A model generated the notes under the pieces. It was not told where the DNA came from. It saw nothing but the letters and a program-made list of their open reading frames with translations, and searched no databases. A DNA stretch of 64,000 bases, from positions 36,506-100,505 of the forward strand of contig JAFGNJ010000027.1 of NCBI GenBank assembly GCA_016927065.1, given 5' to 3'. Source of the DNA: Deltaproteobacteria bacterium. GTDB lineage: Bacteria > Desulfobacterota > B13-G15 > RBG-16-54-18. Of this stretch, positions 34,004 to 52,107 are shown in pieces. The position numbers and the translations under genes are program-made. The stretch's first letter is position 1. Every line of letters begins with the position of its first letter.

Positions 34004-34597
34004 TTATTGTTGCTGGAGGAGCTTTATTTCCTTTAAGGCAAAATCATCGTGGTTGCCGCACTTGGGACCTTTTGCTGTGACGATGAGCTTGTTGATCCCA
34101 GGGCGCAATACGTGTGAGGGGAGGGGGACCTGGATGGTTCTGAATGTTCTATCCTCTTCTTGATAAACGTAGTTATTGAGGTTATCAATATAATTGCCAT
34201 TGATATATAATTTATTTGTAAAGAAACCGTTGCGGTAGTCTGTACTCTCATTGTCGTTGCGTACGGCAACCATTCCTGCTACCTGCAAGGAGAGGGTGTT
34301 TTTACTTCCCACTGATCCTAGAGTAAATTCCTTCTGATACTCCAGACCGACCCCACTATTATCATCACCTATGTAGCTCATCTCGGGGTCAATAATGATA
34401 GTTTTTGTCATTTCCTCTACGTTGGATATCTCCCTATTAATGTACTGTTCACTCTGGGGGGTAGCTTGGGAAATGTTGGATATTAAGCGAAAAAATAATC
34501 GGGGGGTAACGGGGAAAAGGCCTAATATTAAAAGAATAATTATACAATAACTGAAGCCCTTTTTCATCAATGCCTCTTTTTTCGGAGACGAACCCAA
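34004..34597 (-). CDS. secreted hypothetical protein
   Basis: Signal peptide; likely start at internal Met MKKGFSYCIIILLILG (about 34567). Confidence 0.5.
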   Translation of the reverse strand: MGSSPKKEALMKKGFSYCIIILLILGLFPVTPRLFFRLISNISQATPQSEQYINREISNVEEMTKTIIIDPEMSYIGDDNSGVGLEYQKEFTLGSVGSKNTLSLQVAGMVAVRNDNESTDYRNGFFTNKLYINGNYIDNLNNYVYQEEDRTFRTIQVPLPSHVLRPGINKLIVTAKGPKCGNHDDFALKEIKLLQQQ

Positions 34598-34708
34598 TTT
34601 ATATAATAATTTGACGAAAAGGTCAAGCTTTTTTGTATAAAGAAGCAGTTGACATTAATGCTTTCTGTATGGTTAATTAATACTGTACGATTCTTTGAAT
34701 AATTTTTA

Positions 34709-35788: not shown

Positions 35789-36543
35789 TGGAAAAGATCT
35801 CTGTTTACGTCCTTACTTTTAATAATGAGAGGACTATTGAGCGGTGTTTAGAAAGTATCCGGTGGGCCGATGAGTTGGTGATCGTGGATTCTTACAGTAC
35901 CGATGACACGCTGGATAGATGTCGCCGCTTTACCAACCAGGTCTATCAACGAAAGTGGACAAACCACCAAGATCAATATCAGTATGCCGCTGATCTGACG
36001 GCGAACCGCTGGGTGATGTTCGTTGATGCCGATGAAGAGATCCCCCCTGCGTTGGCCCAGGAGATCCAAGAGGAATTAAAGATCAAAGACGGTCAGTGGG
36101 ATGGCTATATCGTACATCGACACACCTATTACCTGGGGCGATGGATACAGCACGGTGGGTGGTACCCTGACTATGAGATCAGATTATACGATCGGAACAA
36201 GGGAAAGTGGGCAGGGGGCCTGCATGCCAAGGTAACGGTGGATGGGAGGATCAAGACCTTGCAGAACCGTTATCACCATTATACTTATCGAGACATTTCC
36301 GATCAGATTCAGACTATTGACAGATATTCTCAGATCGCCTCGGAGGATATGCTTCGAGAGGGTAAAAATTTTAGTCTTATAAATATGTTGCTGAATCCAC
36401 CCTTTCGTTTTATAAAGGAGTATATCTTTAAAAGGGGTTTTCTGGATGGGATACCTGGTTTGATAATTATTGTCTCCACTATGTTTTATGTGTTTATTAA
36501 GCATGCCAAGCTGTGGGAACGGCAAAAAGGATTGAGTGAATAA
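35788..36543 (+). CDS. glycosyltransferase family 2
   Basis: SVYVLTFNNERTIERCL...VIVDSYSTDDT GT2 signature; TAATG stop-start overlap. Confidence 0.8.
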   Translation: MEKISVYVLTFNNERTIERCLESIRWADELVIVDSYSTDDTLDRCRRFTNQVYQRKWTNHQDQYQYAADLTANRWVMFVDADEEIPPALAQEIQEELKIKDGQWDGYIVHRHTYYLGRWIQHGGWYPDYEIRLYDRNKGKWAGGLHAKVTVDGRIKTLQNRYHHYTYRDISDQIQTIDRYSQIASEDMLREGKNFSLINMLLNPPFRFIKEYIFKRGFLDGIPGLIIIVSTMFYVFIKHAKLWERQKGLSE

Positions 36544-36544
36544 T

Positions 36545-37552
36545 ATGGCGGGCAAAGAGACCTTTGAGGGGAAACGGGCACTGATCACCGGAGGGTTAGG
36601 CTTTGTGGGAAGCAACTTGGCTATTCGGCTTGTGGAGGAAGGAGCTGCAGTTACTCTTGTGGATAATATGATCCCCCGTCAAGGTGGCAATTTGTTTAAC
36701 ATTTCTCCCATTGCCGACAAGGTCCATGTAAACTTCAGCGACGTGAGAAATCAACTCTCCATGGATCATCTTGTGCAGGGACAAGATTATATTTTCCATC
36801 TGGCTGGCCAGGTGAATCACGTGGAGAGCGTGCGCAATCCCATTCAGGACCTTGATATCAACTGCCGGGGCACCTTGGTTCTGTTAGAGGCCTGTAGGCG
36901 GTTCAACAGAGATGTCAGGATTATTTTTTCAGGTACCAGGGGAGAATACGGTGCAAGTGTCCATCTGCCCGTCGATGAAAACCATCCCACGAATCCTAAA
37001 GGAATATACGCCGTGACCAACTTAACGGCGGAAAAGATGATCCTCGTCTATCACGATATCCATAAGATCCACGGGGTTTGCCTCAGGATTACCAATACCT
37101 ACGGTGAGCGTCACCAGATGCACCACGATGAATTTGGTGTGCTGAATTGGTTCATCCGTCAGGCCATGGATGGTAAGACCATACCGGTCTTTGGGGATGG
37201 GATGATCTTGCGAGATTTTTTGTACGTAGAAGACGTGGTAGATTGTTTTTTGATGGTGACGACCTGTCCTCAGGCCTATGGCGAGGTATTCAACGTGGGC
37301 ACGGGGGTTCCCATCAATTTTGTTGATCTGGCCAAGAAGATTGTAGCGATCGCAGGTAGTGGCAGGATGGACTTCACCGAATTTACCCCGGAACGGAAAG
37401 AAGTAGAACCGGGGGACTACTATACTGATATTGCCAAGATCAAACAGGTGGTGGGCTGGGAGCCTAAGACCTCCCTTGATGAGGGGATCAGCAGGACCAT
37501 AGCGTTTTATCGACAATATAAAGACCACTATTGGAAGGACCCTGCTCAGTGA
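36545..37552 (+). CDS. NAD-dependent sugar epimerase/dehydratase (SDR family)
   Basis: Rossmann GGLGFVGSNL; catalytic YxxxK region. Confidence 0.85.
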   Translation: MAGKETFEGKRALITGGLGFVGSNLAIRLVEEGAAVTLVDNMIPRQGGNLFNISPIADKVHVNFSDVRNQLSMDHLVQGQDYIFHLAGQVNHVESVRNPIQDLDINCRGTLVLLEACRRFNRDVRIIFSGTRGEYGASVHLPVDENHPTNPKGIYAVTNLTAEKMILVYHDIHKIHGVCLRITNTYGERHQMHHDEFGVLNWFIRQAMDGKTIPVFGDGMILRDFLYVEDVVDCFLMVTTCPQAYGEVFNVGTGVPINFVDLAKKIVAIAGSGRMDFTEFTPERKEVEPGDYYTDIAKIKQVVGWEPKTSLDEGISRTIAFYRQYKDHYWKDPAQ

Positions 37553-38712
37553 AAATCCTCCATCTTTTTTCGGATTGGAAGTGGACGGGGGCGGCCGAAC
37601 CGGTGGTAAACCTTTGCTCGGCCCTCCAGCAGCGAGGACATGAGGTGGTTCTGGCCTATCGGTGTCCTCCCTTTGAGGTCTCGGAAAGTCTAGAAATAAG
37701 AGCGAGGGAGAAAGGCGTTTGTGGCACTGGTGTCTTTCGTCTTGAACCTATCTCTAAGCTTCACAAGATATATTTCTTAAAGGCACTTGTTGGTGATATC
37801 AAAGATATCGCGCGCTACATCGATCAGGATCAATTTGATATCGTCACTGTTCATAATTCTCATGATCATATCGTGGGGGGGTTAGCGGTGAAGGCTTCAA
37901 GAAGACATCCCCCGATAATCCGGATGGATCATAAGCAGAATTCCCTGAAGGCGGATCTTATCAGCAAGTGGTTTTTCAAGAGATATACCGATGGCCTTAT
38001 TACTTTTTCTAAAGGGGGAGAGGAGAGGTTGACGAACGGTTTAGGATTTCCTCCTGACAGGGTGATCAAAGTACCTACAGCCGTGGACCTCACCAGGTTT
38101 GATCCACAGAGGGGCTACAAAGATATGCGCCCGGTTTTCGGGATACCCCCCACATCTCCCGTCGTGGGGATCGCGGCCAGGTTTCAGAGATATAGAAGGA
38201 CCGATATCCTTTTGGAAGCCGTATCGCATCTGACTAAAGATGTTCCTGAGGTAAGGCTTTTATTGGTAGGCCACAGTAGCCAGATGCAAAAGAGTATCAT
38301 AGAACCTATGGAAAATTTAGGGATATCTTCTCACGTGATTTTAGCCGGGTATCGAATGGATGACTATGTCGATACCCTTGCCTGTATGGATGTCTTCGTC
38401 TTGCTTACCCCTGGTTCTGATGGAACGGCCCGTGCCCTGCGGGATGCCATGGCCATGGGGAAGCCGGTAGTTGCAACCACAAAAGGTATTTTGCCGGAGC
38501 TCGTACGTAATGGGGTTAACGGATTTATCGTACAGGAGACTCCGCAGGCCATCTGCCAAGCCCTTTTACCCCTCGTGAAGGATCAGCAATTGCGCCATTC
38601 AGTAGGAAAGGCTGCTCGGAAGACGGCCCAAGAGGAATTTCGCCTGGAGCGTCAGGCCGAAGCGGTGGAGGCGTTTTATCAAAAGATAGTGGAGGCGCTT
38701 CCTCGTTCATGA
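37531..38712 (+). CDS. glycosyltransferase family 4 (GT-B fold)
   Basis: GT-B C-terminal domain pattern; start may be GTG 37549 (GTGA overlap with upstream stop). Confidence 0.8.
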   Translation: MEGPCSVKILHLFSDWKWTGAAEPVVNLCSALQQRGHEVVLAYRCPPFEVSESLEIRAREKGVCGTGVFRLEPISKLHKIYFLKALVGDIKDIARYIDQDQFDIVTVHNSHDHIVGGLAVKASRRHPPIIRMDHKQNSLKADLISKWFFKRYTDGLITFSKGGEERLTNGLGFPPDRVIKVPTAVDLTRFDPQRGYKDMRPVFGIPPTSPVVGIAARFQRYRRTDILLEAVSHLTKDVPEVRLLLVGHSSQMQKSIIEPMENLGISSHVILAGYRMDDYVDTLACMDVFVLLTPGSDGTARALRDAMAMGKPVVATTKGILPELVRNGVNGFIVQETPQAICQALLPLVKDQQLRHSVGKAARKTAQEEFRLERQAEAVEAFYQKIVEALPRS

Positions 38713-39878
38713 AGATCGCCCTTGGCATACGAAATTTTTCTCCCGCCAAGGGTGGGGCTGAAAGATATCTGGTAGAGCTCACACAGTTTCTTGTGCAAGA
38801 GGGGCATGAGGTTCACGTCTTTACGCACAGTTTCGACAAAAGAATAGAAGGCCTTTATCTACATAACGTAACCCTTTTTCCTTTCCCCAAAGGGCTGCGC
38901 ATCCTCTCCTTCGCCTCGAAGTGTCATAAACTCATGAAACGGGATAATTTCGATGTGATCATAGGGGTGGGCAATACCTGGCAGGCAGATCTCTTACAGC
39001 CGCACGGAGGGGTCCATTGGAAATGGTTTTGGCGGAGTTTAAAGGCTTATCAAAGTCCGTGGCTTTGGGGCGCAAAGTTTCTGGGGAGGGTTTTGAGTCC
39101 TAAACAGTGGATTGAAGGGATCGTGGAGGATGCCCCTTATCGTACAGGGGTGAAACAGATTGTAGCCATTTCCGAGATGGTTAAGAGAGATATCGTTGAT
39201 TATTATGGTATTCCCGAGAAGAAAGTAGTGGTGATTTACAATGGTGTTGATACCGAATACTTCCACCCTCGTAACAAAAAATATAGGAAGAAGATCAGAA
39301 GTCAGTATGGTTTAGGCGCACAGGATGTCGTGCTCATATTCGTTGCGCATAACTTCAGGCTTAAAGGATTGCGATGCCTTATTCAGGCCCTACCTTTGAT
39401 TAAGAAAAAGAATGAGAAGATCAAACTTTTGGTGGTAGGCCGTGATAACAACGATCCTTATCGGCGTCTCGCCAAGAAGATGGGATGTGAGAGTGATGTC
39501 TTTTTTGCTGGGGGAGTACGGTATCTTGAGCGATATTATCCGAGTGCGGATATTTTGGTACATCCTACTTTTTACGATGCCTGTTCCTTGGTGGTTCTAG
39601 AGGCCTTGGCCAGTGGGGTGCCGGTGATCACGACGCAATATAATGGTGCAGGGGGAATCATTGCAGATGGGAAGGAAGGGTTTGTATTGGAAGATCCAAG
39701 AAAGGTGGAAATCTTAGCTAAAAAAATCTTGTATTTTGCAGATCCTATAAAGCTTAAAGAGGCCTCGTCTGCTGCCAGAAATTTAGCCAAAAGATATCCG
39801 CTAAAAACGTCTTATGGGGCAATGTTGAAGACCATGCAATCTATTGCGTCTAAAGACTCGCAGTTAAGACAGTTATGA
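38709..39878 (+). CDS. glycosyltransferase family 4 (GT-B fold)
   Basis: GT-B pattern incl. EALASGVPVITT motif; 4-nt overlap upstream. Confidence 0.8.
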   Translation: MKIALGIRNFSPAKGGAERYLVELTQFLVQEGHEVHVFTHSFDKRIEGLYLHNVTLFPFPKGLRILSFASKCHKLMKRDNFDVIIGVGNTWQADLLQPHGGVHWKWFWRSLKAYQSPWLWGAKFLGRVLSPKQWIEGIVEDAPYRTGVKQIVAISEMVKRDIVDYYGIPEKKVVVIYNGVDTEYFHPRNKKYRKKIRSQYGLGAQDVVLIFVAHNFRLKGLRCLIQALPLIKKKNEKIKLLVVGRDNNDPYRRLAKKMGCESDVFFAGGVRYLERYYPSADILVHPTFYDACSLVVLEALASGVPVITTQYNGAGGIIADGKEGFVLEDPRKVEILAKKILYFADPIKLKEASSAARNLAKRYPLKTSYGAMLKTMQSIASKDSQLRQL

Positions 39879-39887
39879 GTTAGGAAG

Positions 39888-40565
39888 ATGAATTTTTTCG
39901 ATTACGGCTTAATTAAATCATTTATTCAGGCATTTCGATACCAAGGGCCGGTAGTGGAGATTGGATCTTTAGTGGTAGACGAAAGTATGAAAGTTTTTGA
40001 TGTGAGGAGTCTATTTCCAAAGAAGAGCTTTTCTGGGGTGGATTTACGGCACGGTGCTGGAGTCGATATCATGGGTGATATTGAAGGATTACCCTTTCAG
40101 CAACATTCTATTGGTACGCTCCTGTGTCTTGACACCATCGAGCATGTCTGGGATGTCCATGCCGCTTTTAAAGAGATAAAAAGGGTATTAAAAAAGGATG
40201 GAATCGCCGTGATTTCCTCCGTATTCAATTTTAAGATTCACGCGTGTCCCCACGATTTTTGGCGGTTTACCCCTGAAGCCTTAGATAGACTCACCAAGGG
40301 TTTCCCGTACAAAATCTTAGGATATCAAGGATATCGAAAACGACCGAGGCATGTTTTTACCGTCGTCTTTGGCAAGGAGTATCGCACTCAAGATATTGAG
40401 AGTCAGATAACGGAATTTAAAAAGTTACTTCAAGGAGAGGCAGTTAGATATTTTTCGGTCTTTGACAGGATGCGTCACTATATTGCTAGCCTCTTTGCCA
40501 AGAAACCGCTCATGGATTTTAGGTACTATAACCACATAGAGGTTCTTCACAAGATTAAGGTTTGA
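39888..40565 (+). CDS. class I SAM-dependent methyltransferase
   Basis: Methyltransferase-fold motifs (VEIGS..., LDTIEHVWD, LKKDGIAVIS). Confidence 0.65.
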   Translation: MNFFDYGLIKSFIQAFRYQGPVVEIGSLVVDESMKVFDVRSLFPKKSFSGVDLRHGAGVDIMGDIEGLPFQQHSIGTLLCLDTIEHVWDVHAAFKEIKRVLKKDGIAVISSVFNFKIHACPHDFWRFTPEALDRLTKGFPYKILGYQGYRKRPRHVFTVVFGKEYRTQDIESQITEFKKLLQGEAVRYFSVFDRMRHYIASLFAKKPLMDFRYYNHIEVLHKIKV

Positions 40566-40592
40566 TTATTCCCTACATTAGGGGAGATTGCC

Positions 40593-41180
40593 ATGAATGT
40601 GACAAAAGCAATAAAAAGGACAATTATTCCTCCTGACCCCTTTTTTATGAATAACAACAAGCTTTATAAAAAGTATCAAATTGGCGATTGGACATATGGT
40701 ACCCCTAAGGTGTTCTCATGGCGTGAAGGTACGACCTTAAAGATTGGACGGTTCTGTGCAATTGCTGATGGTGTAATAATTTTATTGGGCGGAGAACACA
40801 GGATAGATTGGGTGACCACCTACCCGTTTACTAAGCTCTTTCCGAAGGCCAAGGGGTTTACGGGCCATCCTCGTTCCAGAGGTAATGTTATTATAAAAAA
40901 TGATGTGTGGATTGGTACAGATGCATTAATCCTATCGGGCGTTACGATAGGTAACGGCGCTGTGATAGCTGCCCGTAGTGTTGTCAAGGAAAATGTGTTA
41001 CCTTATTCAATAGTTGCTGGGAATCCAGCAAAGCATATTAAGTTTCGGTTTAGTAAGTCAATAATAGATGATTTACAGAAAATTGCGTGGTGGAATTGGC
41101 CTTTGTCAAAAATTGAGGAAGCATGGCCATTGTTGCTTTCGTCGGATATAGGAGCATTTGTAGACAAGTATAAAGCGTGA
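40593..41180 (+). CDS. hexapeptide-repeat acetyltransferase (left-handed beta-helix)
   Basis: Hexapeptide repeats VWIGTDALILSGVTIGNGAVIAARSVV, NPAKHI C-terminus. Confidence 0.8.
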   Translation: MNVTKAIKRTIIPPDPFFMNNNKLYKKYQIGDWTYGTPKVFSWREGTTLKIGRFCAIADGVIILLGGEHRIDWVTTYPFTKLFPKAKGFTGHPRSRGNVIIKNDVWIGTDALILSGVTIGNGAVIAARSVVKENVLPYSIVAGNPAKHIKFRFSKSIIDDLQKIAWWNWPLSKIEEAWPLLLSSDIGAFVDKYKA

Positions 41181-41318: not shown

Positions 41319-41930
41319 TTGATGATAACTTGGAGTCAGCTTGTCAAAGGTCGCGATCAGATCCACGAGCGCTATCCTACGATATGGGGACTAATGTTGA
41401 TCAAAAGGCCCTCCAGATTGGCAAAGAGTAGGTATGCGCATCCGCGATGTGGGGAGAATAGAAGAATTGACAATAGAGTGAAACATATTTATCCTGATAT
41501 CTGTTATGAAAATATGTATGAAGATCAAAAATTGCTTCATGATTATTAGTCATTAGATGCGATTGATGGGTAATTTGATCTCATTATACTTTTGAAAGCC
41601 ATAGAACATTTGGAGCTGGGAGAAGGGATGACGATGTTAAGCCGGCTCAATGAATTGCTCGTAGATGGAGGTAGGTTGGTTATCAGTGCTCCCAATATTT
41701 TTAACCCCAGCCGGTTTTGGTTTAAAGCGACTCACAAGGTAGCCTATAGCTATGAAGAGTTGGGAGGGATTGTACTTGGTCAGAGCTTTGATGTATCGGG
41801 AATTTATCGTACCTCTAATGATTCCTTTTTAAAGTATTTTTGGCGTCTTACCCTCATTTGTTTCCCGCCTAGAATTTTATATAAGGATTTTGTCAAATCA
41901 ATTCTTATTACGACCTGCAAAAGAGGTTGA
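41319..41930 (+). pseudogene. decayed copy of the locus-specific methyltransferase paralog (intact at 44697 and 47091)
   Basis: Two short ORFs with near-identical nucleotide stretches to 44697..45335 but missing the SAM-binding middle and broken frame. Confidence 0.6.
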
Positions 41931-42016
41931 TCTATAGTTCATCGCAAGGTGTGAGTGGATAAGAACATGATAGAAGCCAATCACTTGATTAAAAAACTCT
42001 TAAAAGGAGATAACAG

Positions 42017-42736
42017 GTGAATGTGAAAGAACTTTCAATTTTTATCAATAACACCCAAAGAGACTTGTACAATTTTATTTATCAAAAAATTTTTGTTAAT
42101 TTTAAATTAAAGAAAAATGTCATTGACCATTTTCATAAACTTTATTATGAATCACATAAAGTAACTTGGGAAAACACATTTTGGTTAGGTATTCAAGCCC
42201 ATAAATGCCCTTTAGATCTCTGGATTTACCAAGAGATTATCTTTGAGATTAAGCCAGATATAATAATAGAATGTGGAACATTTCATGGTGGAAGTGCTTT
42301 GTTTTTAGCATCTATATGTGATTTGTTAAATAAGGGGAAAATTATTTCTATAGATATAGAAAACAAAAAAGACAGACCAAAACATGAAAGAATCACATAT
42401 TTACTTGGTTCTTCAACTTCTGAAGAAATCGTAGAGAAAGTTCAAATCTTCATAAAAAACATTGATAGGATTATGGTCATTTTGGATTCAGATCATAGCA
42501 AAGAACATGTCCTAAGGGAATTAGAAATTTATAGTAAATTTGTGACAAAAGGCAGTTATATCATTGTTGAGGACACAAACATTAATGGCCATCCTATAGG
42601 ACCAGACTTTGGGCCAGGTCCGATGGAGGCAGTTAAGGAATTTTTAAAGATGAAAAGAGATTTTGCCATAGATAAGTCAAGAGAAAAATTTTATCTAACT
42701 TTTAATCCAGATGGATATCTCAAAAGGGTAAGATGA
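42017..42736 (+). CDS. CmcI-family (cephalosporin hydroxylase-like) sugar O-methyltransferase
   Basis: ECGTFHGGSALFLA motif; strongly AT-rich coding; GTG start. Confidence 0.65.
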   Translation: MNVKELSIFINNTQRDLYNFIYQKIFVNFKLKKNVIDHFHKLYYESHKVTWENTFWLGIQAHKCPLDLWIYQEIIFEIKPDIIIECGTFHGGSALFLASICDLLNKGKIISIDIENKKDRPKHERITYLLGSSTSEEIVEKVQIFIKNIDRIMVILDSDHSKEHVLRELEIYSKFVTKGSYIIVEDTNINGHPIGPDFGPGPMEAVKEFLKMKRDFAIDKSREKFYLTFNPDGYLKRVR

Positions 42737-42803
42737 CAAGAAGAAAATACTTTTTCGTCTGAACTACCAAAAGAAGATATCTTTTTATCTGAACTATTGT
42801 GAA

Positions 42804-43463
42804 ATGGATAGTAAACGAAGGAACTTATATTATTTCAGCGTTCGAAATGATCTTATCCGACTTATCCCTCTCCATGCAAAACGAATTTTAGAAGTGGGAT
42901 GTGCAGGTGGTATGACCGGGAAAGCATTAAGGGAGAAAGGATTTAAAGAAATTGTAGGTATTGAGGTCAATAGAAAAATCGCTCAAAAAGGGAAATTGTA
43001 TTACGATAAATTAATTATTGGAGATGTAGAGAAAATAAAACTTCCATTTGAAAAAGGGCATTTCGATTGTATTCTATATGGTGATGTCTTAGAGCATTTG
43101 GTGGATCCGTGGAAAGTGTTAAAAGAGCACAACGCATTGTTAAAGTTGGAGGGGGTCATTATCTGTAGTATCCCGAACGTACGACATTACAAGATTATCA
43201 AAAAACTGGTCTTCAGTGGAACTTGGGAGTATACTGAGTATGGGATATTGGATAGAACCCATCTCCGTTTTTTCACACTGGATTCAATTAGAAAGATGTT
43301 AAGAGAGACGGGTTTTGAGATCAGAGATTTGATAAAGCGCCCTTCGGGCGCAAAATGGTTGAAGGTTTTAAATCGACTTTTAAAGAATCTAATAATTAAT
43401 TTTTTGGTGGGGCAATATACGGTTGTGGCGGTAAAAAGAGAAGAGGCGGAAGGTAGCGTATAG
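42804..43463 (+). CDS. class I SAM-dependent methyltransferase
   Basis: Motif I ILEVGCAGGMTG, motif post-II GDVLEHLVDP. Confidence 0.8.
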   Translation: MDSKRRNLYYFSVRNDLIRLIPLHAKRILEVGCAGGMTGKALREKGFKEIVGIEVNRKIAQKGKLYYDKLIIGDVEKIKLPFEKGHFDCILYGDVLEHLVDPWKVLKEHNALLKLEGVIICSIPNVRHYKIIKKLVFSGTWEYTEYGILDRTHLRFFTLDSIRKMLRETGFEIRDLIKRPSGAKWLKVLNRLLKNLIINFLVGQYTVVAVKREEAEGSV

Positions 43464-43626
43464 TCAAGATGGGCATTTCGGCTCGATGTTAAAAAAAATT
43501 GCTTGCATCTCGCTGATCTCCTTGATGCGACAATTTTTGATATTTTGATATTAATATTTTTAAAAATAGTTCGTATGAGGGGTCATATAACTTCTCATTT
43601 GACAAATCTTCTTCGAACGGGCAAAG

Positions 43627-44538
43627 ATGGCTGAACTTCAGGTAAGCATTGTCATTCCATGCTACAATAGCGCAAAATTTATTGATACAACCTTGCAAGC
43701 AGTATTCAATAGTACTTACAAGGACTTCGAGGTACTAGTTATAGACGATGGTTCCACAGATGGTACCAAGAAGGTTTTACAAGAGAAAGGTTGGATCAAA
43801 AAGGTCCGATACGTTTACCAGGAAAACAAAGGCATAGCTGGTGCACGCAATGCGGGGATTACAATCGCTCAAGGGAAATACATAAGTCTTTTAGATCATG
43901 ATGACCAACCGTTACCTGAAAAATTGGAAAGAATGGTTTCTTACCTGAATAACCACCCTGAATTTAAGATGGCTTACTCGCCATGTATTATTGAACGTAT
44001 TGATAAAGGTGGAGAGCGCTATAAACAGGGTATATACTCATCACATACGCCCCGTTGGCTTCGAAACAAGTATGAAGGTGATCTTTTTGAAAATCTATTT
44101 TATATGCGCATTCTTATTACCAGTGTTCTTATGTATAAGGAGGCGGCTTTGGCCGTCGGTCTTTTTGACGAAACCTTTAAGGTATGTGAAGATCTAGAGT
44201 TCTACTTGAGATTTGGCGCACAGTATAGAATTGGTTTTATTAAAGAACCTTGCAATGTTCATATCGAACACTTTTCAAATAGCAGCAAGCATTTTGCCGA
44301 TTTATACCCTACCTATGCAATTCTTGCGTATAATCGTCACTATCAAAGCCTAAAAAAGAAAAGTTCCAGGGCCGAAAAGATTTATCGTGAGCGCATGACA
44401 GCTGCCTACAGAGGGCTTGCAGACGTATCATTAAAGAACGACAATAGAAAGGGCGCAAGAAAATATGCTGTTGATGCAATCCGCATGAATCCATACCATC
44501 CGAAATATTATTTTAAAATGTTTAAAACTTGGCTATGA
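43627..44538 (+). CDS. glycosyltransferase family 2
   Basis: VSIVIPCYNSAKFI...VLVIDDGSTDGT, DxD-like DHDD. Confidence 0.85.
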   Translation: MAELQVSIVIPCYNSAKFIDTTLQAVFNSTYKDFEVLVIDDGSTDGTKKVLQEKGWIKKVRYVYQENKGIAGARNAGITIAQGKYISLLDHDDQPLPEKLERMVSYLNNHPEFKMAYSPCIIERIDKGGERYKQGIYSSHTPRWLRNKYEGDLFENLFYMRILITSVLMYKEAALAVGLFDETFKVCEDLEFYLRFGAQYRIGFIKEPCNVHIEHFSNSSKHFADLYPTYAILAYNRHYQSLKKKSSRAEKIYRERMTAAYRGLADVSLKNDNRKGARKYAVDAIRMNPYHPKYYFKMFKTWL

Positions 44539-44696
44539 ATTGAGCAAGAAAGTGTTCTTGGAAATTTTTGATATTGGGAAATATGTTCAACATCATCTGG
44601 TAAACAGAAGAACAAGCTAGCTTTTTAGTACAAAAGTGTTTTAATAAACTATCCTACACTGAGTTAGTAAGAAACAGACAAATATAGAGGGGTAGT

Positions 44697-45335
44697 ATGT
44701 TAGATATGTTATATTGGAGTCAGCTTGTCAAAGGTCGCGATCAGATCCACGAACGATATCCTACGATATGGGGTTTACGGTTAATCAAGAGACCCTCCAG
44801 GTTGGTTAAAACCCTTCTTCGTCCAGGTATGCGCATCCTTGATGTCGGCGCGAGTGACAGAAGGATGGAGAGAGGAATTAAGGAGATTTACCCTAACGTT
44901 ATTTACAAAAGCATGGATGTTGATCGCGGATTGCCTCATGATTATTATACTTTGGATGGAATAAATGAGCAGTTCGATCTTATTATGCTTTTTGAAGTTA
45001 TAGAGCATCTGGAGTTGGAAGTAGGGATAAAAATGTTAAGTCGGCTCAATGAATTGCTCGTACATGGAGGTAGGTTGGTTATCAGTACTCCCAATATTTT
45101 TAACCCCAGCCGATTTTGGTTCGATGCGACTCACAAGGTAGCCTATAGCTATGAAGAGTTGGGAGGGATTTTGCTTGGTCAGGGGTTTGAAGTACTGGAT
45201 ATCTACCGCACCTTTAACGCTTCATTTCCAAAGTATTTTGTGCGCCTCACCCTTTTCTACCCCTTGCATAGGATTTTAAATGTAGATTTTGCCAAGTCTA
45301 TTGTATTTCTGGCCCAAAAAAGAGGGAACCGGTGA
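44697..45335 (+). CDS. methyltransferase-fold protein, locus-specific paralog family (copy 2)
   Basis: ILDVGASDRRMERG motif I-like, EVIEHLE motif; paralog of 47091 and of the decayed copy at 41319. Confidence 0.65.
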   Translation: MLDMLYWSQLVKGRDQIHERYPTIWGLRLIKRPSRLVKTLLRPGMRILDVGASDRRMERGIKEIYPNVIYKSMDVDRGLPHDYYTLDGINEQFDLIMLFEVIEHLELEVGIKMLSRLNELLVHGGRLVISTPNIFNPSRFWFDATHKVAYSYEELGGILLGQGFEVLDIYRTFNASFPKYFVRLTLFYPLHRILNVDFAKSIVFLAQKRGNR

Positions 45336-45380
45336 TGAGAAAATATTACCTTCATATACCAACAGCAAGCAGAGTGATGT

Positions 45381-45986
45381 ATGCGCATTGCTTATAAACT
45401 ATCAAAATTCTTTTTTAAATTGGCCAATCAAAAGCAGGTTATCGAATGGGTAAAAATATATGGTGCGTTTGATAAGACTAATTACGAAGATTATACAATA
45501 CGCAATCTTAAGAGCGAGTCCTCAATCTACCATGGCGAGCTTATTAAATGGGCACAAGACATTATGCCTTCTCCTCGCAAAGTTTTACTATCAGGTGATT
45601 GCAACAACCCCGCACAATTTGTGCAGGAAAAAATTCGAGCTAAGGAGATGTACACAGCAGGTCTATTAGATGTTGATTTCAAATGGGGTTTCGATGAAGA
45701 TCCTCCCACAATGGGCCAGTTTGACCTTATTATCAGTCAAGCAATTTTGGAGCATCTGCTAAATCCTTATAAGCATATGCACGATCTGGCTGGTCTTTTG
45801 GTGCCTGATGGTTATTTGATAGTGCATACTGTAATCCCTGGTTTTTGATATCATCGATATCCTATTGATGCCTTTCGTTTTTTCCCTGACTGGTTTGAAG
45901 AAATAGCGAAGAGGTTAAATTTTTCGATAGTTAAAAAAAGAATCAAACGGACCCACATATTTTATATGTATAAAAAAATCAGTTAA
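45381..45986 (+). pseudogene. methyltransferase-fold-like ORF interrupted by an in-frame TGA at 45846-45848
   Basis: Reading frame continues through the TGA for 45 more codons to TAA at 45984; TGA replaces a likely Trp codon. Confidence 0.5.
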
Positions 45987-46060
45987 GAGCAGGAAAGATT
46001 TGAATGTAGAAGAGCTTTGATTTGCTATGTGTATTATAAAACTAAGACACAAGGGTGACA

Positions 46061-47044
46061 ATGAAGGTAACCATCTTACTCTCGCGTAATGCTGGTACAA
46101 GATATCGATTTCCTCAGTTTATACAAGCCCTTACCAGAGAAGGAATACAGGCAGAAATATATAGGTTTCAATCTTCTCTTCCACTTTTTCTTAAGTTGTT
46201 ACAAGATTTGAAGAAAGCAGATATCGTAGTAATATTGAGAAAACTCTTATCACCATGGAAACAGCAGTTAATCCGAAGATTCGCAAAAAAAATTGTTTTT
46301 GAATATGATGATTCAATTATGTATCGATCTTCACGTTGGGAGAATCAATACTCCCGTACCCGGAGAGCACGATTTAAAGATATGGTGAAGATATGCGACC
46401 TCATCATTGCTGGCAATCAATTTCTCAAGGGAGAAGCGACGAAGTACGTGAATGAGGAAAAAGTGCATGTTATACCCACGGTCGTTGATATTGAAAGATA
46501 TGTACGAAAGCAATATCATGATTCAAAAGATGAAGTGATAATTGGCTGGTTTGGAAGCAAGGGGACCCTCTATTACCTCAAGAAACTTGTTCCGGCGCTT
46601 ACAGAAATCGGCAAAAGATTTCCCTTTGCTCAATTGAAGATCGTATGCAATGATTTTCTTGATATCCCCAATATGAAAGTGATAAAAAAAGAATGGTCAG
46701 AAACGGATGAGGTTGCTGATCTTCAGAGCTTTGATATCGGGTTGGGTCCTTTGACGGATGATGTATGGACACGAGGTAAGTGTGGTCTGAAACTGGTTCA
46801 ATATCTAGCAGTGGGGATCCCAGTCATTTGTTCCCCGGTAGGAGCGAATAAGGAAATTGTTAGCGATGGTGATGTTGGATTATGGGCCCGGGATACGCGG
46901 GAATGGATAGAGAAACTTAGTTTACTCATTGAAAAACCAGAGATGAGAAAAAAGATGGGGGAAAAAGGAAGAGAGAGAATAGAGAAGCAATATTCTCTTC
47001 AGGCCGTTGCCCCTAAATTAATTGATATACTAAGCAGATTGTGA
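46061..47044 (+). CDS. GT-B fold glycosyltransferase (GT4-like), paralog of 48477
   Basis: Similarity to 48477 protein (YSRTR...FLK..A.K, WFGSKGTLYYL vs WIGDHGSIHYL); ATG 46061 preceded by AAGGGTGA. Confidence 0.75.
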   Translation: MKVTILLSRNAGTRYRFPQFIQALTREGIQAEIYRFQSSLPLFLKLLQDLKKADIVVILRKLLSPWKQQLIRRFAKKIVFEYDDSIMYRSSRWENQYSRTRRARFKDMVKICDLIIAGNQFLKGEATKYVNEEKVHVIPTVVDIERYVRKQYHDSKDEVIIGWFGSKGTLYYLKKLVPALTEIGKRFPFAQLKIVCNDFLDIPNMKVIKKEWSETDEVADLQSFDIGLGPLTDDVWTRGKCGLKLVQYLAVGIPVICSPVGANKEIVSDGDVGLWARDTREWIEKLSLLIEKPEMRKKMGEKGRERIEKQYSLQAVAPKLIDILSRL

Positions 47045-47090
47045 AATATCTTTTTAAGATAATTGGAATGTCTATTTCCAAGGAATAACG

Positions 47091-47741
47091 ATGTTGGACT
47101 GGAGTCAAATAATTCATTATCGTGATCAAATTCATGAACGTTATCGGAAGATATGGAACATTCCTTTGATTAAGAGACGGTTTAGCCTCTTAGAGAGAAA
47201 CATTCGTCCTGGGATGCGCCTTCTCGATGTGGGGGCTGGAGAGCGAGGGATGGAAGATAAGATCGTGAAAAAACACAATGGAGTAATATACAAAAGTATG
47301 GACATAGATCGTCGTCTCCACCATGACTATTACTCGCTAGATGATATTGATGAACAGTTTGATCTTGTTTTGCTCCTCGATGTCATTGAGCATGTGGAGT
47401 TGGAGGAAGGGGTGAAGATGTTACAGCGAATCAATGAACTCCTCGTCGATGGTGGGAATTTGATTATCAATACGCCGAACATATTTAATCCTAATCGTTT
47501 TTGGTTAGATGCTACTCATAAAGTGGCATACAGCTATGAGGAGCTGGGTGGTATCTTGCTCAGCCAAAGCTTCGATGTGTTGGAAATCTATCGTACCTAT
47601 AATGATTCATTCCCAAAGTATATTCTCCGCCTTACACTTTGTTATCCCCTGCATAGAATGTTAAATGTTGATTTTGCAAAATCTATTATAATCTTGGCGA
47701 GCAAGAAGAAGGATACTGTAGAAGTACGGGTGTCTGAATGA
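47091..47741 (+). CDS. methyltransferase-fold protein, locus-specific paralog family (copy 3)
   Basis: Full-length similarity to 44697 protein; LLDVGAGERGMED motif I. Confidence 0.65.
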   Translation: MLDWSQIIHYRDQIHERYRKIWNIPLIKRRFSLLERNIRPGMRLLDVGAGERGMEDKIVKKHNGVIYKSMDIDRRLHHDYYSLDDIDEQFDLVLLLDVIEHVELEEGVKMLQRINELLVDGGNLIINTPNIFNPNRFWLDATHKVAYSYEELGGILLSQSFDVLEIYRTYNDSFPKYILRLTLCYPLHRMLNVDFAKSIIILASKKKDTVEVRVSE

Positions 47742-48469
47742 GCGTTAGTAGAATAAGGGCCCATAATTTGGTAATAGAAATCCTGAAAAATGCGGGAAAG
47801 CCAGGAAAAATTCTGGATGCTCCTGCGGGAACCGGTACAATATCTAAAACATTGCAGGATGCAGGATTTGAAGTCTATGCCGCTGATATAACACCTGAGT
47901 TGTTTAAGCTTCCAGATATTCATTGTGAGAAGGCAGACCTCAATTCCCGTCTCCCTTATAAGGATGGATTTTTTGATTATATTTTAAATTCCAATGGTAT
48001 TGAACATCTGGAGGACCAGTATAATTTTGTCCGGGAGTGTTACCGGATTCTAAAGCCAAACGGCAAACTACTTATCACGACCCCTAATATCCTGAACTTA
48101 AAAGCGCGGGTTGCATATATGTTACTTGGCTTCCATACGTTTCATGATAGACCCCACGATGAAGTAGGTGATTACGAGGGCGGCGGGCATATTAATATGG
48201 CCTCCTACTTCGATTTGCGAGTAAATCTGCACAGAAACGGGTTTAAAATCATCTCAATTTCAACGCATATGTACAGTGCTACTGCTCTGTTTTTTTCCTT
48301 TCTTGTTCCGTTTGTGTATGTGATGATGTTTAAATCCTTTAAGAGAGAAAAGAATAGAGAACAGAGAGTGAGGAACAAAGACATCGCAAAACATGTTTTA
48401 TCAGCCGATCTTCTGTTTGGTAAAAAGCTTTTTGTGCTCGCAGAAAAAGATCACCGTTATAAAAAATAG
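47738..48469 (+). CDS. class I SAM-dependent methyltransferase
   Basis: Motif I ILDAPAGTGTIS, YRILKPNGKLLITTPN. Confidence 0.8.
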   Translation: MSVSRIRAHNLVIEILKNAGKPGKILDAPAGTGTISKTLQDAGFEVYAADITPELFKLPDIHCEKADLNSRLPYKDGFFDYILNSNGIEHLEDQYNFVRECYRILKPNGKLLITTPNILNLKARVAYMLLGFHTFHDRPHDEVGDYEGGGHINMASYFDLRVNLHRNGFKIISISTHMYSATALFFSFLVPFVYVMMFKSFKREKNREQRVRNKDIAKHVLSADLLFGKKLFVLAEKDHRYKK

Positions 48470-48476
48470 TTACGCT

Positions 48477-49475
48477 ATGCGAGTTCTCTTTCTCATCCAA
48501 GGTTGGGATGTAGCAGCTAGTCGGTATAGAGTACTTCAATATCTGCCATATCTGGAGAAAAGGGGGGTCGAGACCCACGTAGCCACGTATCCCAGGGGTA
48601 TTACCGACTTTGCAACGTTCTTGAGGAGGGTTGCAGATTATGATGTGCTCTTTCTTCAGAGAAAAAGATATAATCCACCTTTTTTGCAGCTTTTACGCTG
48701 GAGGGCACAGGGGATCGTGTATGACTTTGACGATGCTGTGATGTATAGAAACTCTACGGCGCCATCACCTTACTCCAGAACCCGTCAGAAAAGATTTGCC
48801 CGTATCATAAGGGCCGCAGATTATGTCATTGCTGGTAATAATTTCTTGAAAGATCAAGCTTCGAAATTTACCGAACAGGTAACTGTGATACCTACGTCAA
48901 TTGACCGGGATCGATATGATGTTAAAGACTACCAAGAAAAAAAGAACAGGGTATCGATCGGGTGGATCGGAGATCACGGGAGCATCCACTATCTGCAAAA
49001 AATGCGGTCTATCTTTGAAAAACTGGGCAGGAGATATCCTGACCTCGAGCTTAAAATCATCTGCGATACCTTCTTTGACTGTAAAAACATTGAGGTTGTC
49101 AAAAAGCCGTGGAGCCAGAAAGAAGAGGTTGAGGACTTGAAAAGCCTAGACATCGGTGTGATGCCTCTCTTGGATGATCCCTGGTCGTGGGGCAAATGTG
49201 GACTCAAGATACTGCAGTATTATGGAGTAGGAGTGCCGGTAGTCTGCACGCCCGTGGGTGTCAACAGGGATGTGGTACAAAATGGGGTGAACGGTTTTTG
49301 GGCCATGACCAATGACGAATGGATTGAGAAGCTCTCCGTATTGATTGAAGACCCTTCCCTGCGGCAAAAGATGGGGTTACGAGGCCGAGAGTTGGTGAGA
49401 AAGTCATATTCCATACAAGGGTGTGCGTCAATATTTTATGGGGTGTTGGATGAGGTGGCCCGTGGGGGTGTCTGA
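48477..49475 (+). CDS. GT-B fold glycosyltransferase (GT4-like), paralog of 46061
   Basis: Paralog of 46061 protein; ATG at 48477. Confidence 0.75.
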   Translation: MRVLFLIQGWDVAASRYRVLQYLPYLEKRGVETHVATYPRGITDFATFLRRVADYDVLFLQRKRYNPPFLQLLRWRAQGIVYDFDDAVMYRNSTAPSPYSRTRQKRFARIIRAADYVIAGNNFLKDQASKFTEQVTVIPTSIDRDRYDVKDYQEKKNRVSIGWIGDHGSIHYLQKMRSIFEKLGRRYPDLELKIICDTFFDCKNIEVVKKPWSQKEEVEDLKSLDIGVMPLLDDPWSWGKCGLKILQYYGVGVPVVCTPVGVNRDVVQNGVNGFWAMTNDEWIEKLSVLIEDPSLRQKMGLRGRELVRKSYSIQGCASIFYGVLDEVARGGV

Positions 49476-51159
49476 TGATCTATCATATAAGCGGGGGGTG
49501 AAGGGATGGCGATGGACCCTTGTCGAAGGCACGGCTCAGGAGTTACCCCCCTCGTTGCTCGATGATCCAGAGCGATTTCTGTGCAAACACCCTCCACAAA
49601 AAGTTTTAAAAGAATCCCCTGTCCGAACGGTCTCGATTATTTCAGGGCCTCGTGGAAGGCTCTTCCTGAAACGCTATAAGATAAAAAAATTCAAAGAGAA
49701 ATTTAAATACCTCGCGGTCCCCTCCAAGGCACACAAAGAATGGTTGATGGGGCGTCAAGCACTGCGCAAAGGAATCCCCACCCCCATGCCTTTGGCCATA
49801 GCCGAGAGGCGAAAAGGGATTTTTTTACAAGATGCCTTTCTCATAACCCAAGCCATTTTCCCTTCAAGCTCCTTCATTGAATTGATTTTGGACGGAAGAC
49901 ATAAGGACCTTCTATCCCCTGCAGCCCGATTAATCCATCAGATCCATGAAGCCGGTCTCTTCCATCAGGATCTGCATGCCGGCAATATCTTGGTCGGCGA
50001 AAATAATAACAAGCTTTACCTCATTGACCTCCATCGTTCCAGATTCGTAAAGAGTGTTTCCCAACGCAGGAAACTATGGAACCTGGCGCAGTTTTTTTAT
50101 TCTCTCAAAGGATTAATTTCGAATAAAAATAAAAAGGTTTTTTTAAATAGGTACGATAAAGAAGGGAAGACATTTAACAAGGGATTTGAGGAAACTTTGC
50201 GGAGAATCGAGAGGGTGGAGGAGCGGATTTATCGGCGGCATATGAAGAGCAGGACGAAGCGATGTCTCAAAGACAGCGGAGGATTTTATGTCGCCAAGGA
50301 TGATTCCTGGCGGATATGGGCACGGAGGGGGTGGGAGTTCCAGACATTGCTGCAGCTCATAAAAAAACACAAGAAAATTGTTGACAAGGGTACCGATGGC
50401 TTGATCAAGACAGATCGCCGTTCAGCTATCTCCCTTTTCAATTATAGGAAGACCAGGATTTGCGTGAAGGAATACCGTTATAGGGGGGGGCTGGGATGCA
50501 TAAAGGACTGTTTCAGAAGATCCAGGGCCCGCAGGGGATGGCTGATGGGCAATGGGTTGGTGGTCAGGGGCGTCCCAGGGATTACGCCGCAGGCCCTCTT
50601 GGAGCGCAGGGTGAGAGGGTTTTTAAAGGATGCCTTTCTCATCATGGAGACCCCCCCCGGCTATGTCGAGCTTGACCGCTATATGGTTCGGTCTTTTGAA
50701 GGCTTCCCTCATAAAAAACTTAAGGCAAGGACCTTTCTGATGGCCTTGGCAGGGTTCATAGCTCACCTGTATACGCTCAGGATTTCTCATAGGGACCTGA
50801 AGGCCTGCAACATCATGGTGCGGGAGGAGCACGTGGGGTGGGAATTCGGTTTAGTCGATATGGATGATATCCGTTTGGACAAAAACATCCGCACCAGGAG
50901 GTTTGTGAAGGCATTGATTCAATTACATACGTCTACTCCCCTTTTTATCGGCATGGACGATCGAATTGCATTCCTGAGCGAGTATCTGCGGTTGATCGGC
51001 CGAGGTGACATAAGGGAGATCATCAGCGCGGTGAGCAGGGGCAGTAGGGGAAGACAATTGGTCTATGTAGACCCTCAGGGTGATGTGATCATGGATGTTG
51101 CTTGGGAAAAGACTTGCGCTTCCTGTTGTGAACCCGCTCTTTCAAAAGAGGACTTGTGA
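49423..51159 (+). CDS. tandem two-domain lipopolysaccharide (Kdo/WaaP-type) kinase-like protein
   Basis: Two kinase catalytic loops: FHQDLHAGNILV...LIDLHRS and SHRDLKACNIMV...LVDMDD; start uncertain. Confidence 0.7.
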   Translation: MRQYFMGCWMRWPVGVSDDLSYKRGVKGWRWTLVEGTAQELPPSLLDDPERFLCKHPPQKVLKESPVRTVSIISGPRGRLFLKRYKIKKFKEKFKYLAVPSKAHKEWLMGRQALRKGIPTPMPLAIAERRKGIFLQDAFLITQAIFPSSSFIELILDGRHKDLLSPAARLIHQIHEAGLFHQDLHAGNILVGENNNKLYLIDLHRSRFVKSVSQRRKLWNLAQFFYSLKGLISNKNKKVFLNRYDKEGKTFNKGFEETLRRIERVEERIYRRHMKSRTKRCLKDSGGFYVAKDDSWRIWARRGWEFQTLLQLIKKHKKIVDKGTDGLIKTDRRSAISLFNYRKTRICVKEYRYRGGLGCIKDCFRRSRARRGWLMGNGLVVRGVPGITPQALLERRVRGFLKDAFLIMETPPGYVELDRYMVRSFEGFPHKKLKARTFLMALAGFIAHLYTLRISHRDLKACNIMVREEHVGWEFGLVDMDDIRLDKNIRTRRFVKALIQLHTSTPLFIGMDDRIAFLSEYLRLIGRGDIREIISAVSRGSRGRQLVYVDPQGDVIMDVAWEKTCASCCEPALSKEDL

Positions 51160-52107
51160 AACCGTCTTGATTCGATTGGTTCCTTTGATCTCCAAGGGGG
51201 AAAGGGGAAGGAAGATGAGGCGGAGGCGTTCACCATAGGTATCGGAGAGTAATCGGATATAGTGGGCCTGCATTGTCTTCCTTTGTTGGTGGAAGGCGCA
51301 ATCCGCCTGCTCAATGCAATTGTTGACAATCAGATAGTGCACGGGAAGCCCGTGAGTGTCGAAGTTGTGGATGATACGTTCCGTCTGCTTGACCCCTAAC
51401 GACTCGGGGATGGTGACCACGATGTATTCCGTGAGGCGCTCATCTCTGATAAAGGCGGCAATTTCATTGGAGAGTGCCTGCCATCCGGTGATGATTTCCA
51501 AGAGTGATCGCTTGCCTTTCTGCAGCTTCACCGCTTCCTTCGCTTTTTCAAAATAACTATACAGGTTGAGATAGAATTTCGTCGCCCCCTCCAGGTGGCG
51601 TAGGAAGATCTCGGGGAGGTGGAGCAGGCGCAGGGTGTGTCCTGCCGGGGCGGTGTCCCATACCACCAGGTCATACCGTCCCTCGCGCACCAGTTCCATG
51701 ATGAAATAGAGCATATACTCCTCTTCTATCCCCGGTGCGCCTCCCACATAGTCCATGACAAAGTCATAATCGAGGTCGGTAAACGAGGATACTACCTCAT
51801 AGATCTCACGACCGAAACGCTCCTTCCATTTTTCCCGAACGATCTCAGAGGAGACCTCCAGGGCAGTAAGATCGGTGCAAAGAGGGATAGGGGTTTCTCG
51901 GGGGCCGACGGTGATCTCAAAGATATCCGAGAGGGACGGCGTCGGGTCGCTGGACAGGATAAGGGTCTTCTTCCCCAATTCGGCCATGTGCATGGCTATG
52001 GCCGCCGCACAGGTGGTTTTCCCCACTCCGCCTTTTCCCCCTACCAGGATCAATTGTTTTGATCTCCTCTCTAAATCGGAGAAAGACCTTTTCTCTGCGC
52101 TCATCAC
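51142..52107 (-). CDS. ArsA/GET3-family P-loop ATPase (single domain)
   Basis: Deviant Walker A GGKGGVGKTT; 18-nt 3' overlap with convergent kinase gene. Confidence 0.8.
   Translation of the reverse strand: MMSAEKRSFSDLERRSKQLILVGGKGGVGKTTCAAAIAMHMAELGKKTLILSSDPTPSLSDIFEITVGPRETPIPLCTDLTALEVSSEIVREKWKERFGREIYEVVSSFTDLDYDFVMDYVGGAPGIEEEYMLYFIMELVREGRYDLVVWDTAPAGHTLRLLHLPEIFLRHLEGATKFYLNLYSYFEKAKEAVKLQKGKRSLLEIITGWQALSNEIAAFIRDERLTEYIVVTIPESLGVKQTERIIHNFDTHGLPVHYLIVNNCIEQADCAFHQQRKTMQAHYIRLLSDTYGERLRLIFLPLSPLEIKGTNRIKTVSQVLF

Follow-up and report, generated by a model that had tools for sequence, protein, structure and literature searches.

The window, the whole 64,000-nucleotide (nt) stretch of contig JAFGNJ010000027.1 analyzed here, carried three homologous methyltransferase genes within a predicted glycan biosynthesis locus. 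These genes belong to a family of class I S-adenosylmethionine (SAM) methyltransferases of ~210 amino acids (aa), labelled MTX in this report, and were compared with related loci designated by L-numbers (L001, L069 and others). The three copies were located as follows:

Copy A: 41322..41930, forward strand, predicted full-length type-1 MTX pseudogene (ATG at 41322, stop TGA at 41928-41930)
Copy B: 44697-45335, forward strand, intact type-1 MTX, orthologue of MTX1 in the closest relatives
Copy C: 47091-47741, forward strand, intact type-2 MTX, orthologue of MTX2 in relatives

All copies lie on the same strand, with start-to-start distances of ~3.39 kb from A to B and ~2.39 kb from B to C (open reading frame (ORF) listing and repeat finding). 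Using B as query, tblastn recovered A (41322-41927, 64% aa identity over 208 residues, E 4e-79) and C (47091-47714, 68% aa identity, E 1e-94), E-values which exclude chance similarity. Nucleotide identity over the coding region was 76% between A and B, 68% between B and C, and 64% between A and C in a three-way DNA alignment. The original prediction of three homologous copies within 6.5 kb, drawn from the letters of the window only, was thus confirmed by tblastn and DNA alignment, with the ATG of A placed at 41322. The copies at 44697 and 47091 had rightly been described as intact, both being uninterrupted ORFs that passed the Pfam Methyltransf_23 threshold (36.2 bits for B and 37.1 bits for C, cutoff 27).

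Copies A and B shared two exact matches, of 39 nt (41330-41368 = 44714-44752) and 45 nt (41727-41771 = 45126-45170). The long near-identical stretches first noticed between them are therefore real, and the 38-mer quoted as an example falls within the 39-nt match. Repeat finding over 39-50 kb returned otherwise only one match between glycosyltransferase (GT) paralogues (46404/48826, 40 nt, 70%) and matches of 20-34 nt, a kind flagged by the tool as often due to chance. A 27-nt inverted repeat (41507/44563) and AT-rich direct repeats (D4-D10) were also considered and taken as chance. As deposited at NCBI, the protein of B (P0003; 177 aa, 99% identity) was 35 residues shorter than the 212-aa ORF, indicating an internal start codon in the deposited annotation, which probably cuts off the conserved N-terminus; the true start of B is probably the ATG at 44706, as expected from the family consensus M-x-x-W-S.

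Copy A aligned with B over the full coding region, start and stop codons included, and, in the DNA alignment, also end to end with C. Its SAM-binding middle, first reported as lost, was present yet more diverged from B (57-69% nt identity). With motif I destroyed, the first description was correct as to the effect but not as to the anatomy. Two deletions were found there, one of 11 nt between 41428 and 41429 (gap opposite B 44813-44823) and one of 4 nt between 41453 and 41454 (gap opposite B 44849-44852), which together (net -15 nt) restored the reading frame. The frame break that had been noticed is thus real but only local, and two in-frame stops follow it:

41429..41453, forward strand: locally frame-shifted stretch of A, 25 nt out of frame, corresponding to the codons of SAM motif I (ILDVGAS)
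41547-41549 (TAG, at invariant Tyr84) and 41571-41573 (TAA), forward strand: premature in-frame stops of A, located by translation and comparison of invariant columns

The two ORFs by which A was originally recognized share one frame and are split by these stops, and the largest ORFs left (76 and 112 aa) are both without motif I. Altered residues amounted to 16 of the 69 that are invariant in 18 intact family members, including G51/A52 (motif I, deleted), K71E, S72N, D74Y and R77Q. The ratio of nonsynonymous to synonymous divergence (dN/dS) between A and B was 0.27, against 0.07-0.14 for intact pairs, and their dN in segments free of the exchange described below was 0.29-0.31, against 0.04-0.07 between B and its L069 counterpart. 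Full-length homology, disabling lesions and relaxed constraint together point to A being a pseudogene, and the presence of one decayed paralogue in the glycan locus, as originally proposed, was supported by its stops, deletions and changed invariant residues.

A database search yielded 654 homologues of B, of ~205-215 aa, mostly from Desulfobacterota-type metagenome-assembled genomes (MAGs). The 66 loci found in GTDB species representatives extended to Auribacterota, Chlamydiota, Nitrospinota and others, most of them with a single copy. Alignment of 18 members displayed two subtypes, with the signatures RPSRL...VGASD...LFEVIEH (type 1) and RRFSL...VGAGE...LLDVIEH (type 2), as well as conserved segments specific to MTX at the N-terminus (W-x-x-h-x-x-R-x-x-I-H-x-R-Y) and the C-terminus (YPLHRILNVDFAKS). 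In a neighbor-joining tree, C and the second copies of other loci formed a type-2 clade (100% bootstrap) and a type-1 clade (97%) included A and B, which were sisters with only 33% bootstrap.

The two subtypes occupied separate positions in the nearest relatives (L001/L002, L006, L069, L071, L072), where genes were ordered as (MT11)-HexAT-MTX1-GTa-MTX2-(CmcI or MT_D)-GTb-kinase (MT, methyltransferase; HexAT, hexapeptide acyltransferase). MTX1 was paired with GTa in L001, L006, L069, L071 and L072, and both MTX1 and MTX2 slots were present in L001/L002, L006, L069 and L071. Other arrangements were also encountered, with a single MTX followed by GTb in L003 and L009, and other mixes in L005, L008, L074 and L079. 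Copy C shared 81-87% aa identity with the second MTX copies of L001, L006, L069 and L071 (86% with L069 MTX2), and B shared 87% with L069 MTX1.

Of the genomes recovered, L069 was nearest to the window (88.9% nt identical along 7.1 kb of backbone, 32595-39739) and harbored HexAT-MTX1-GTa-MTX2 with nothing in between. Compared with it, the window contained an extra segment of ~3.4 kb (A-CmcI-MT23-GT2b) between HexAT and B, and B reads as the resident orthologue of MTX1. Backbone identity to L069 stopped near 39739, within the 3' end of GT4b, which sets the left edge of the exchanged variable region at ~39.74 kb; over window positions 39740-41180, MT11 was unmatched in L069 and HexAT reached only 72% nt identity. 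In L079 (GT4b-MT23-GT2b-MTX-GTb), unbroken homology of 78% nt extended over 43623-45325, including the spacer between GT2b and B, so that MT23, GT2b and B (42804 onward) formed a collinear block there.

Copy A is followed by a gene for a CmcI-type O-methyltransferase, and the junction between the two was informative on its origin:

41865..42016, forward strand: 3' end of A and 83-nt spacer to CmcI, collinear with the MTX2-CmcI junction of L006

The last 66 nt of A were 78% identical to L006 MTX2, against 70% to B. The 83-nt spacer was 72% identical end to end to the MTX2-CmcI spacer of L006 (z = 19 vs shuffles) and resembled none of the sequences that follow B, C and L069 MTX1. As both the 3' end and the spacer matched this junction, A and CmcI appear to be an inherited gene pair rather than a fresh copy of B placed beside CmcI. 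Diagnostic sites placed the first two-thirds of A in type 1, while its 3' third held a single diagnostic type-1/type-2 site, which is insufficient as proof that the coding 3' end derives from type 2; the ancestry proposed for this end is thus based on the spacer. An insertion of the Campbell type or by double crossover was considered and rejected, as it predicts a 5' end of A resembling L069, where the actual identity was only 67%.

The nearest neighbor of A changed along the gene. Copy B was nearest over 41322-41400 (88-90%) and 41628-41780 (92-95%), type-1 genes of other species were nearest over 41428-41627 (75-87%, against only 57-75% for B), and L006 MTX2 was nearest at the extreme 3' end (78-79%, in 60-nt windows). 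This mosaic of site patterns along A was significant (max-chi2 p<=0.001), and two candidate exchange tracts, P1 and P2, were delimited:

P1: A 41322..41408 = B 44706-44792, forward strand, exchange tract 1, containing the 39-nt exact match
P2: A 41612..41693 = B 45011-45092, forward strand, exchange tract 2

Within these patches, B departed from its own orthologue. In P1, B differed from A at 12/87 sites and from L069 at 27/87, with the base of A present at 20 of those 27; in P2, B differed from A at 9/82 sites, from L069 at 23/82 (base of A at 18 of the 23) and from L072 at 28/82, while L069 and L072 differed from each other at 10/82. Two segments outside the patches showed the reverse, with 16/218 differences from L069 against 64/203 from A over B 44793-45010, and 5/158 against 26/158 over 45093-45250. 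Identity of B to L069 was thus about 94-97% nt in these two segments and ~70% in the patches. Overall, B and L069 differed at 5% of sites outside the patches and 30% inside (Fisher p 4e-14), and B carried the base of A at 38 of the 50 sites of P1 and P2 where it differed from L069 (enrichment p 1e-4).

The simplest reading of this pattern is interlocus gene conversion from the lineage of A into B, over two tracts of ~85 nt. Since L069 and L072 agreed in P2, B would be the sequence that changed, and the comparison favors the direction from A to B. Over 41694-41780, where A, B and L069 were all 92-100% alike, the likeness could reflect a transfer in the opposite direction or plain conservation. 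Separately, the last ~80 nt of B (45251-45332) differed from L069 at 30% of sites without matching A, the closest alleles being of the L004/L071 type (88-90%), and form a third mosaic patch of different origin.

The high-identity tracts could also have arisen with no exchange between A and B, if conserved regions of the enzyme were held alike by strong purifying selection and the divergent parts of A decayed unevenly. The central tract (41628-41780) was indeed well conserved between B and L069 as well (proportion of synonymous differences, pS, 0.18), as were all three sequences over 45096-45185 (92-100% alike). Constraint at the protein level cannot, however, explain that in P1 and P2 L069 and L072 differed from B at 22-34% of sites and A at only 11-14%. 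Synonymous sites of these tracts were, moreover, saturated between B and C, and this explanation is unlikely.

Divergence levels indicated that the copies are old. Synonymous sites were saturated between B and C (pS 0.86) and also between A and C, and whole-gene synonymous divergence (dS) was 0.69 between A and B, against 0.65 between B and MTX1 of L069, the nearest relative. In the middle (41456-41627) and at the 3' end (41781-41930) of A, dS to B rose to 1.1-1.3 with a dN/dS of ~0.25. Such values suggest a long functional history, during which A would have been under purifying selection, with constraint relaxed only later. With separate clades, conserved slots in relatives and saturated synonymous sites, B and C are best described as old paralogues representing subtypes MTX1 and MTX2. 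Similarity among the copies did not extend past their start and stop codons, and the spacers that follow the three genes are unrelated. A third copy resembling A was present in none of the related loci retrieved, so that among them it is unique to this genome.

These results do not support the recent duplication originally proposed, in which a single methyltransferase gene would have been triplicated locally in tandem and one of the copies would then have decayed fast; for B and C they contradict it. Three homologues on the same strand within 6.5 kb, exact matches of 39 and 45 nt, tracts 88-95% identical and an overall nearest relative of A that is B all fit such an event. Against it, B and C correspond to two different slots conserved in relatives and group with the orthologues of other genomes, A and B have reached the divergence seen between species, no flanking block is duplicated, and the flanks of A match the MTX-CmcI junction of L006. 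Identity between A and B was moreover patchy, with B departing from its own orthologue inside the patches. A recent triplication is consequently very unlikely; the recombination within the locus that had also been proposed is supported by the A/B mosaic tracts, but their near-identity is not the residue of a young duplication.

An assembly artefact, with strain variants joined through shared methyltransferase sequence or segments between exact repeats wrongly paired, was weighed against Logan k=31 unitigs of run SRR13394437, an independent assembly of short-read data of the same kind. Three unitigs were 100% identical to the window: L078 (30593-41359) linked HexAT to the 5' end of A, L077 (41742-44743) linked the 3' end of A, CmcI, MT23, GT2b and the 5' end of B, and L073 (45141-51848) linked the 3' end of B to the downstream genes. 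Unitig ends lay exactly 30 nt into the 39-nt or 45-nt exact repeats, showing that both copies of each repeat are present in the sample with different flanks. In favor of an artefact, the source is a short-read MAG and the graph branched precisely at the A/B repeats, leaving the middles of the copies unassigned by the unitigs. The longest exact repeat (45 nt) is, however, probably shorter than typical Illumina reads (the length for this run being unchecked), the copies differ at 24% of sites, and strain bubbles are not normally assembled into tandem arrangements. The patches of B resembling A differ from it at 9-12 sites and are thus not collapsed copies, and exchanging the two middles would still leave one broken and one mosaic copy. 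An artefact is therefore highly improbable.

We infer instead the following history, in which MTX1 and MTX2 occupy old slots. Copy A would be a remnant that recombination introduced or preserved from another variant of the locus. Once A and B stood 3.4 kb apart as direct repeats, short-tract interlocus gene conversion would have become possible, and two patches of ~85 nt in B would have been overwritten by A-type sequence. A would have been functional for most of its history and then have died, before or after this exchange, through two deletions in motif I, two stops and the loss of 16 invariant residues. This explanation as a whole, combining old slots, a recombination relic and later conversion between A and B, is considered probable. 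Anatomy, synteny, divergence levels and the mosaic with its statistics are directly shown, and the direction and mechanism of exchange, the order of events and the biochemical role are deduced.

Several points weigh against it. The direction of conversion depends mainly on comparison with one outgroup, L069, to which L072 adds support. Mosaicism was also seen in a control set of three intact orthologues (L072, B, L069; p<=0.003), implying that recombination with outside alleles is common in MTX and could explain some of the patches, and P1 lies in a 5' region variable among all members (20/87 differences between L069 and L072). All assemblies derive from short-read metagenome data, and the middles of the copies (41360-41741 and 44744-45140) were on no unitig retrieved, so that unitigs alone cannot assign a middle to a copy. 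Among the 120 best homologues, none was an intact A-type allele closer to A than B is (middle <=61% aa, 3' end <=65% aa), and a search of metagenomes with GT2b for the donor arrangement MTX-CmcI-MT23-GT2b returned only L079 (MT23-GT2b-MTX, without CmcI or a second MTX). Regarding the function of MTX, NCBIfam contained no curated family for it and gave only sub-threshold UbiG-like matches.

Gene order over 34.7-51.2 kb, as assigned by Pfam, ran from a GT9 heptosyltransferase through a GT2, an epimerase, two GT4s, MT11 and HexAT to A, then through the CmcI-type O-methyltransferase, MT23, GT2b, B, a short methyltransferase ORF and GTa to C, MT_D, GTb and a protein with two Kdo/WaaP-type kinase domains. 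Pfam matches supported the GT9 (PF01075, 5.4e-47) and the kinase (PF06293, 1.8e-32 in two stretches), as well as the GT4s and GT2s. The GT9/kinase backbone was also found in most related loci retaining their flanks, both ends being much weaker in more distant loci. GC content dropped from ~50% in the flanks to 35-40% between 40 and 48 kb, and a GC trough was also observed in the variable genes of relatives. Judged by its gene content, this region makes up the variable, low-GC stretch of a lipopolysaccharide (LPS)-core-like cluster for the biosynthesis of a predicted glycan in an uncultured Thermodesulfobacteriota MAG. The genes between and after the MTX copies were:

42017..42736, forward strand: CmcI-family gene (rhamnosyl O-methyltransferase-like; Pfam RMNT_CmcI 3.7e-68; NCBIfam RhmsylMtase 1.8e-54, below cutoff)
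42804-43463, forward strand: MT23 (Pfam)
43627-44538, forward strand: GT2 glycosyltransferase GT2b (Pfam)
45381..45986, forward strand: second decaying methyltransferase, MT201, a 201-codon gene in which TGG->TGA at 45846-45848 leaves 155 aa
46055..47044, forward strand: GTa, GT4-like glycosyltransferase (Pfam), conserved downstream partner of MTX1
47738-48469, forward strand: MT_D methyltransferase (Pfam), conserved downstream partner of MTX2
48477-49475 (gene call), forward strand: GTb (Pfam), conserved downstream partner of MTX2

Gene calls for MT_D and GTb were taken from L073, which maps 1:1 to window positions 45141-51848, and the same order of the two genes was found in L071, L005 and L008. 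The CmcI-type gene had the lowest GC of the cluster (30%, with 25% at third codon positions); its homologues in L006 and L074 had 31-32% GC in backbones of 49-53%, and that of L001 39% in a backbone of 51-57%. These values are suggestive of a mobile module with a foreign base composition. MT201 homologues are 201 aa long, and tblastn with one of them (P0122) gave 76% identity over 200 aa in a single frame, straight through the stop. The 45 codons after this stop remain in frame and conserved, and the same TGA was present in the independent Logan contig L073; MT201 would be either a very young second pseudogene or a case of sequencing error or readthrough.

GTa (46055-47044) and GTb (48393-49475) were themselves paralogues (43% aa identity, E 6e-102). 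More distant relatives (L011, L014, L023, L038) harbored one MTX followed by both GTs, and the GT duplication thus looks older than the split between MTX1 and MTX2. The kinase (49423-51159) was a tandem double-domain protein of 565-578 aa, conserved in relatives keeping that end of the cluster. In the window, the search for tRNAs as possible integration-site markers found none, and no insertion sequence (IS) or H-repeat-type element was seen at the junctions, where homologous genes were the only possible crossover sites. In L001 (9412-9853) and L002, the HexAT between MT11 and MTX1 consisted of two partial matches in different frames, suggesting a pseudogene there and the decay of different modification genes in different genomes. 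L071 (5150-7388) carried three tandem HexAT copies (71-83% aa identity to that of the window) directly upstream of MTX1, and local amplification of modification genes thus recurs in such loci.

Copies B and C are predicted to be class I SAM-dependent methyltransferases by profile, motif I and a Rossmann-like modelled fold. Motif I (ILDVGASD / LLDVGAGE) and an invariant YKSMD, with the acidic residue after strand 2, were conserved in 18/18 aligned members. The AlphaFold2 model of B (pLDDT 79.6, pTM 0.81) displayed the alternating strands and helices of the class I methyltransferase fold, and Foldseek retrieved >900 methyltransferase matches in the PDB at E<=1e-3, the top ones with probability 1.0, template-modelling (TM) scores of ~0.5 and 13-17% identity. 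The best matches (3cc8, 3l8d, BioC, AtmM/RebM and mycolic acid methyltransferases) were generic and gave no clue to the substrate, and a PDB profile search with MTX returned a single marginal match (2p7h, E 0.0055). MTX was located directly upstream of a GT4-like transferase of the GTa/GTb type in most related loci with downstream sequence available; start and stop codons of the two genes overlapped or abutted in several loci, and a small methyltransferase gene stood between them in L005, L008, L074 and the window. From this genomic context, MTX most likely O-methylates a sugar of the core glycan handled by its partner transferase.

MTX resembles known class I SAM O-methyltransferases of sugars and small molecules (Methyltransf_23/11) in its profile match, motif I, acidic residue and predicted fold. 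It differs from the solved class I methyltransferases in its low identity to them and in its own conserved terminal segments. As an uncharacterised and well-conserved family, it appears to be a reasonable target for glycan biochemistry; most of the informative loci had MTX immediately upstream of a GT4-like transferase.

Interlocus (ectopic) gene conversion occurs between bacterial paralogues, including transfer from pseudogene to functional gene. The pattern of A and B is comparable, with near-identical tracts of ~85 nt within direct repeats 3.4 kb apart that are otherwise 60-70% identical, and with bases of the pseudogene lineage carried by the intact copy. A eukaryotic analogue of pseudogene-to-gene conversion is GBA1/GBAP1 (PMC12075325). 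Unlike silent-cassette systems, the locus showed no sign of programmed or selected exchange between A and B. The tracts are old enough to have accumulated 9-12 differences. By analogy with pilS/pilE or vls, a dead A might be kept as a silent reservoir whose repeated conversion into B diversifies the methyltransferase and the surface glycan, the MTX copies also acting as portable homology arms for module swaps; if true, this would amount to a primitive cassette system acting on a glycan-modifying enzyme, but the idea is extremely improbable.

Chimeric genes can also form when paralogues recombine and the DNA between them is deleted, as described in PMC13626634. Similarly, A joins a type-1 body to the 3' end and spacer of an MTX preceding CmcI, as a crossover between MTX1 and MTX2 in a locus of the L006 type would yield. 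In A, however, only one diagnostic site speaks for a type-2 coding 3' end. The window also retains a full MTX1-GTa-MTX2 set downstream, which a simple deletion in this genome would not fully account for.

The case presents clear evidence of pseudogene-lineage sequence within an intact paralogue, while leaving current concepts unchanged, and cautions that clustered paralogues with identical stretches need not mean recent duplication. It also illustrates how modules of methyltransferases and glycosyltransferases that can be exchanged make up the variable portion of such an LPS-core-like locus, here from an uncultured sulfate-reducer/syntroph lineage, and how pseudogenes and conversion tracts are left behind as scars.

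LPS core and O-antigen clusters (waa/rfb-type loci) contain variable regions with low GC, shuffled modules and gene remnants. Like them, the window combined a conserved backbone (GT9 heptosyltransferase, GT4s, Kdo/WaaP-type kinase) with a low-GC variable segment, whose content (MT11, HexAT x0-3, MTX1/2, MT201, CmcI, MT_D, MT23, GT2b) differed among related genomes, and pseudogenes occurred at different places in different genomes. Horizontally acquired glycosyltransferase operons are documented in Salmonella (PMC3688519). The locus differs from waa/rfb-type clusters in its host, an uncultured Thermodesulfobacteriota, and its glycan is predicted from the genes. Overall, the locus compares with waa/rfb-type clusters as an ordinary mosaic, decaying and recombining variable glycan locus.

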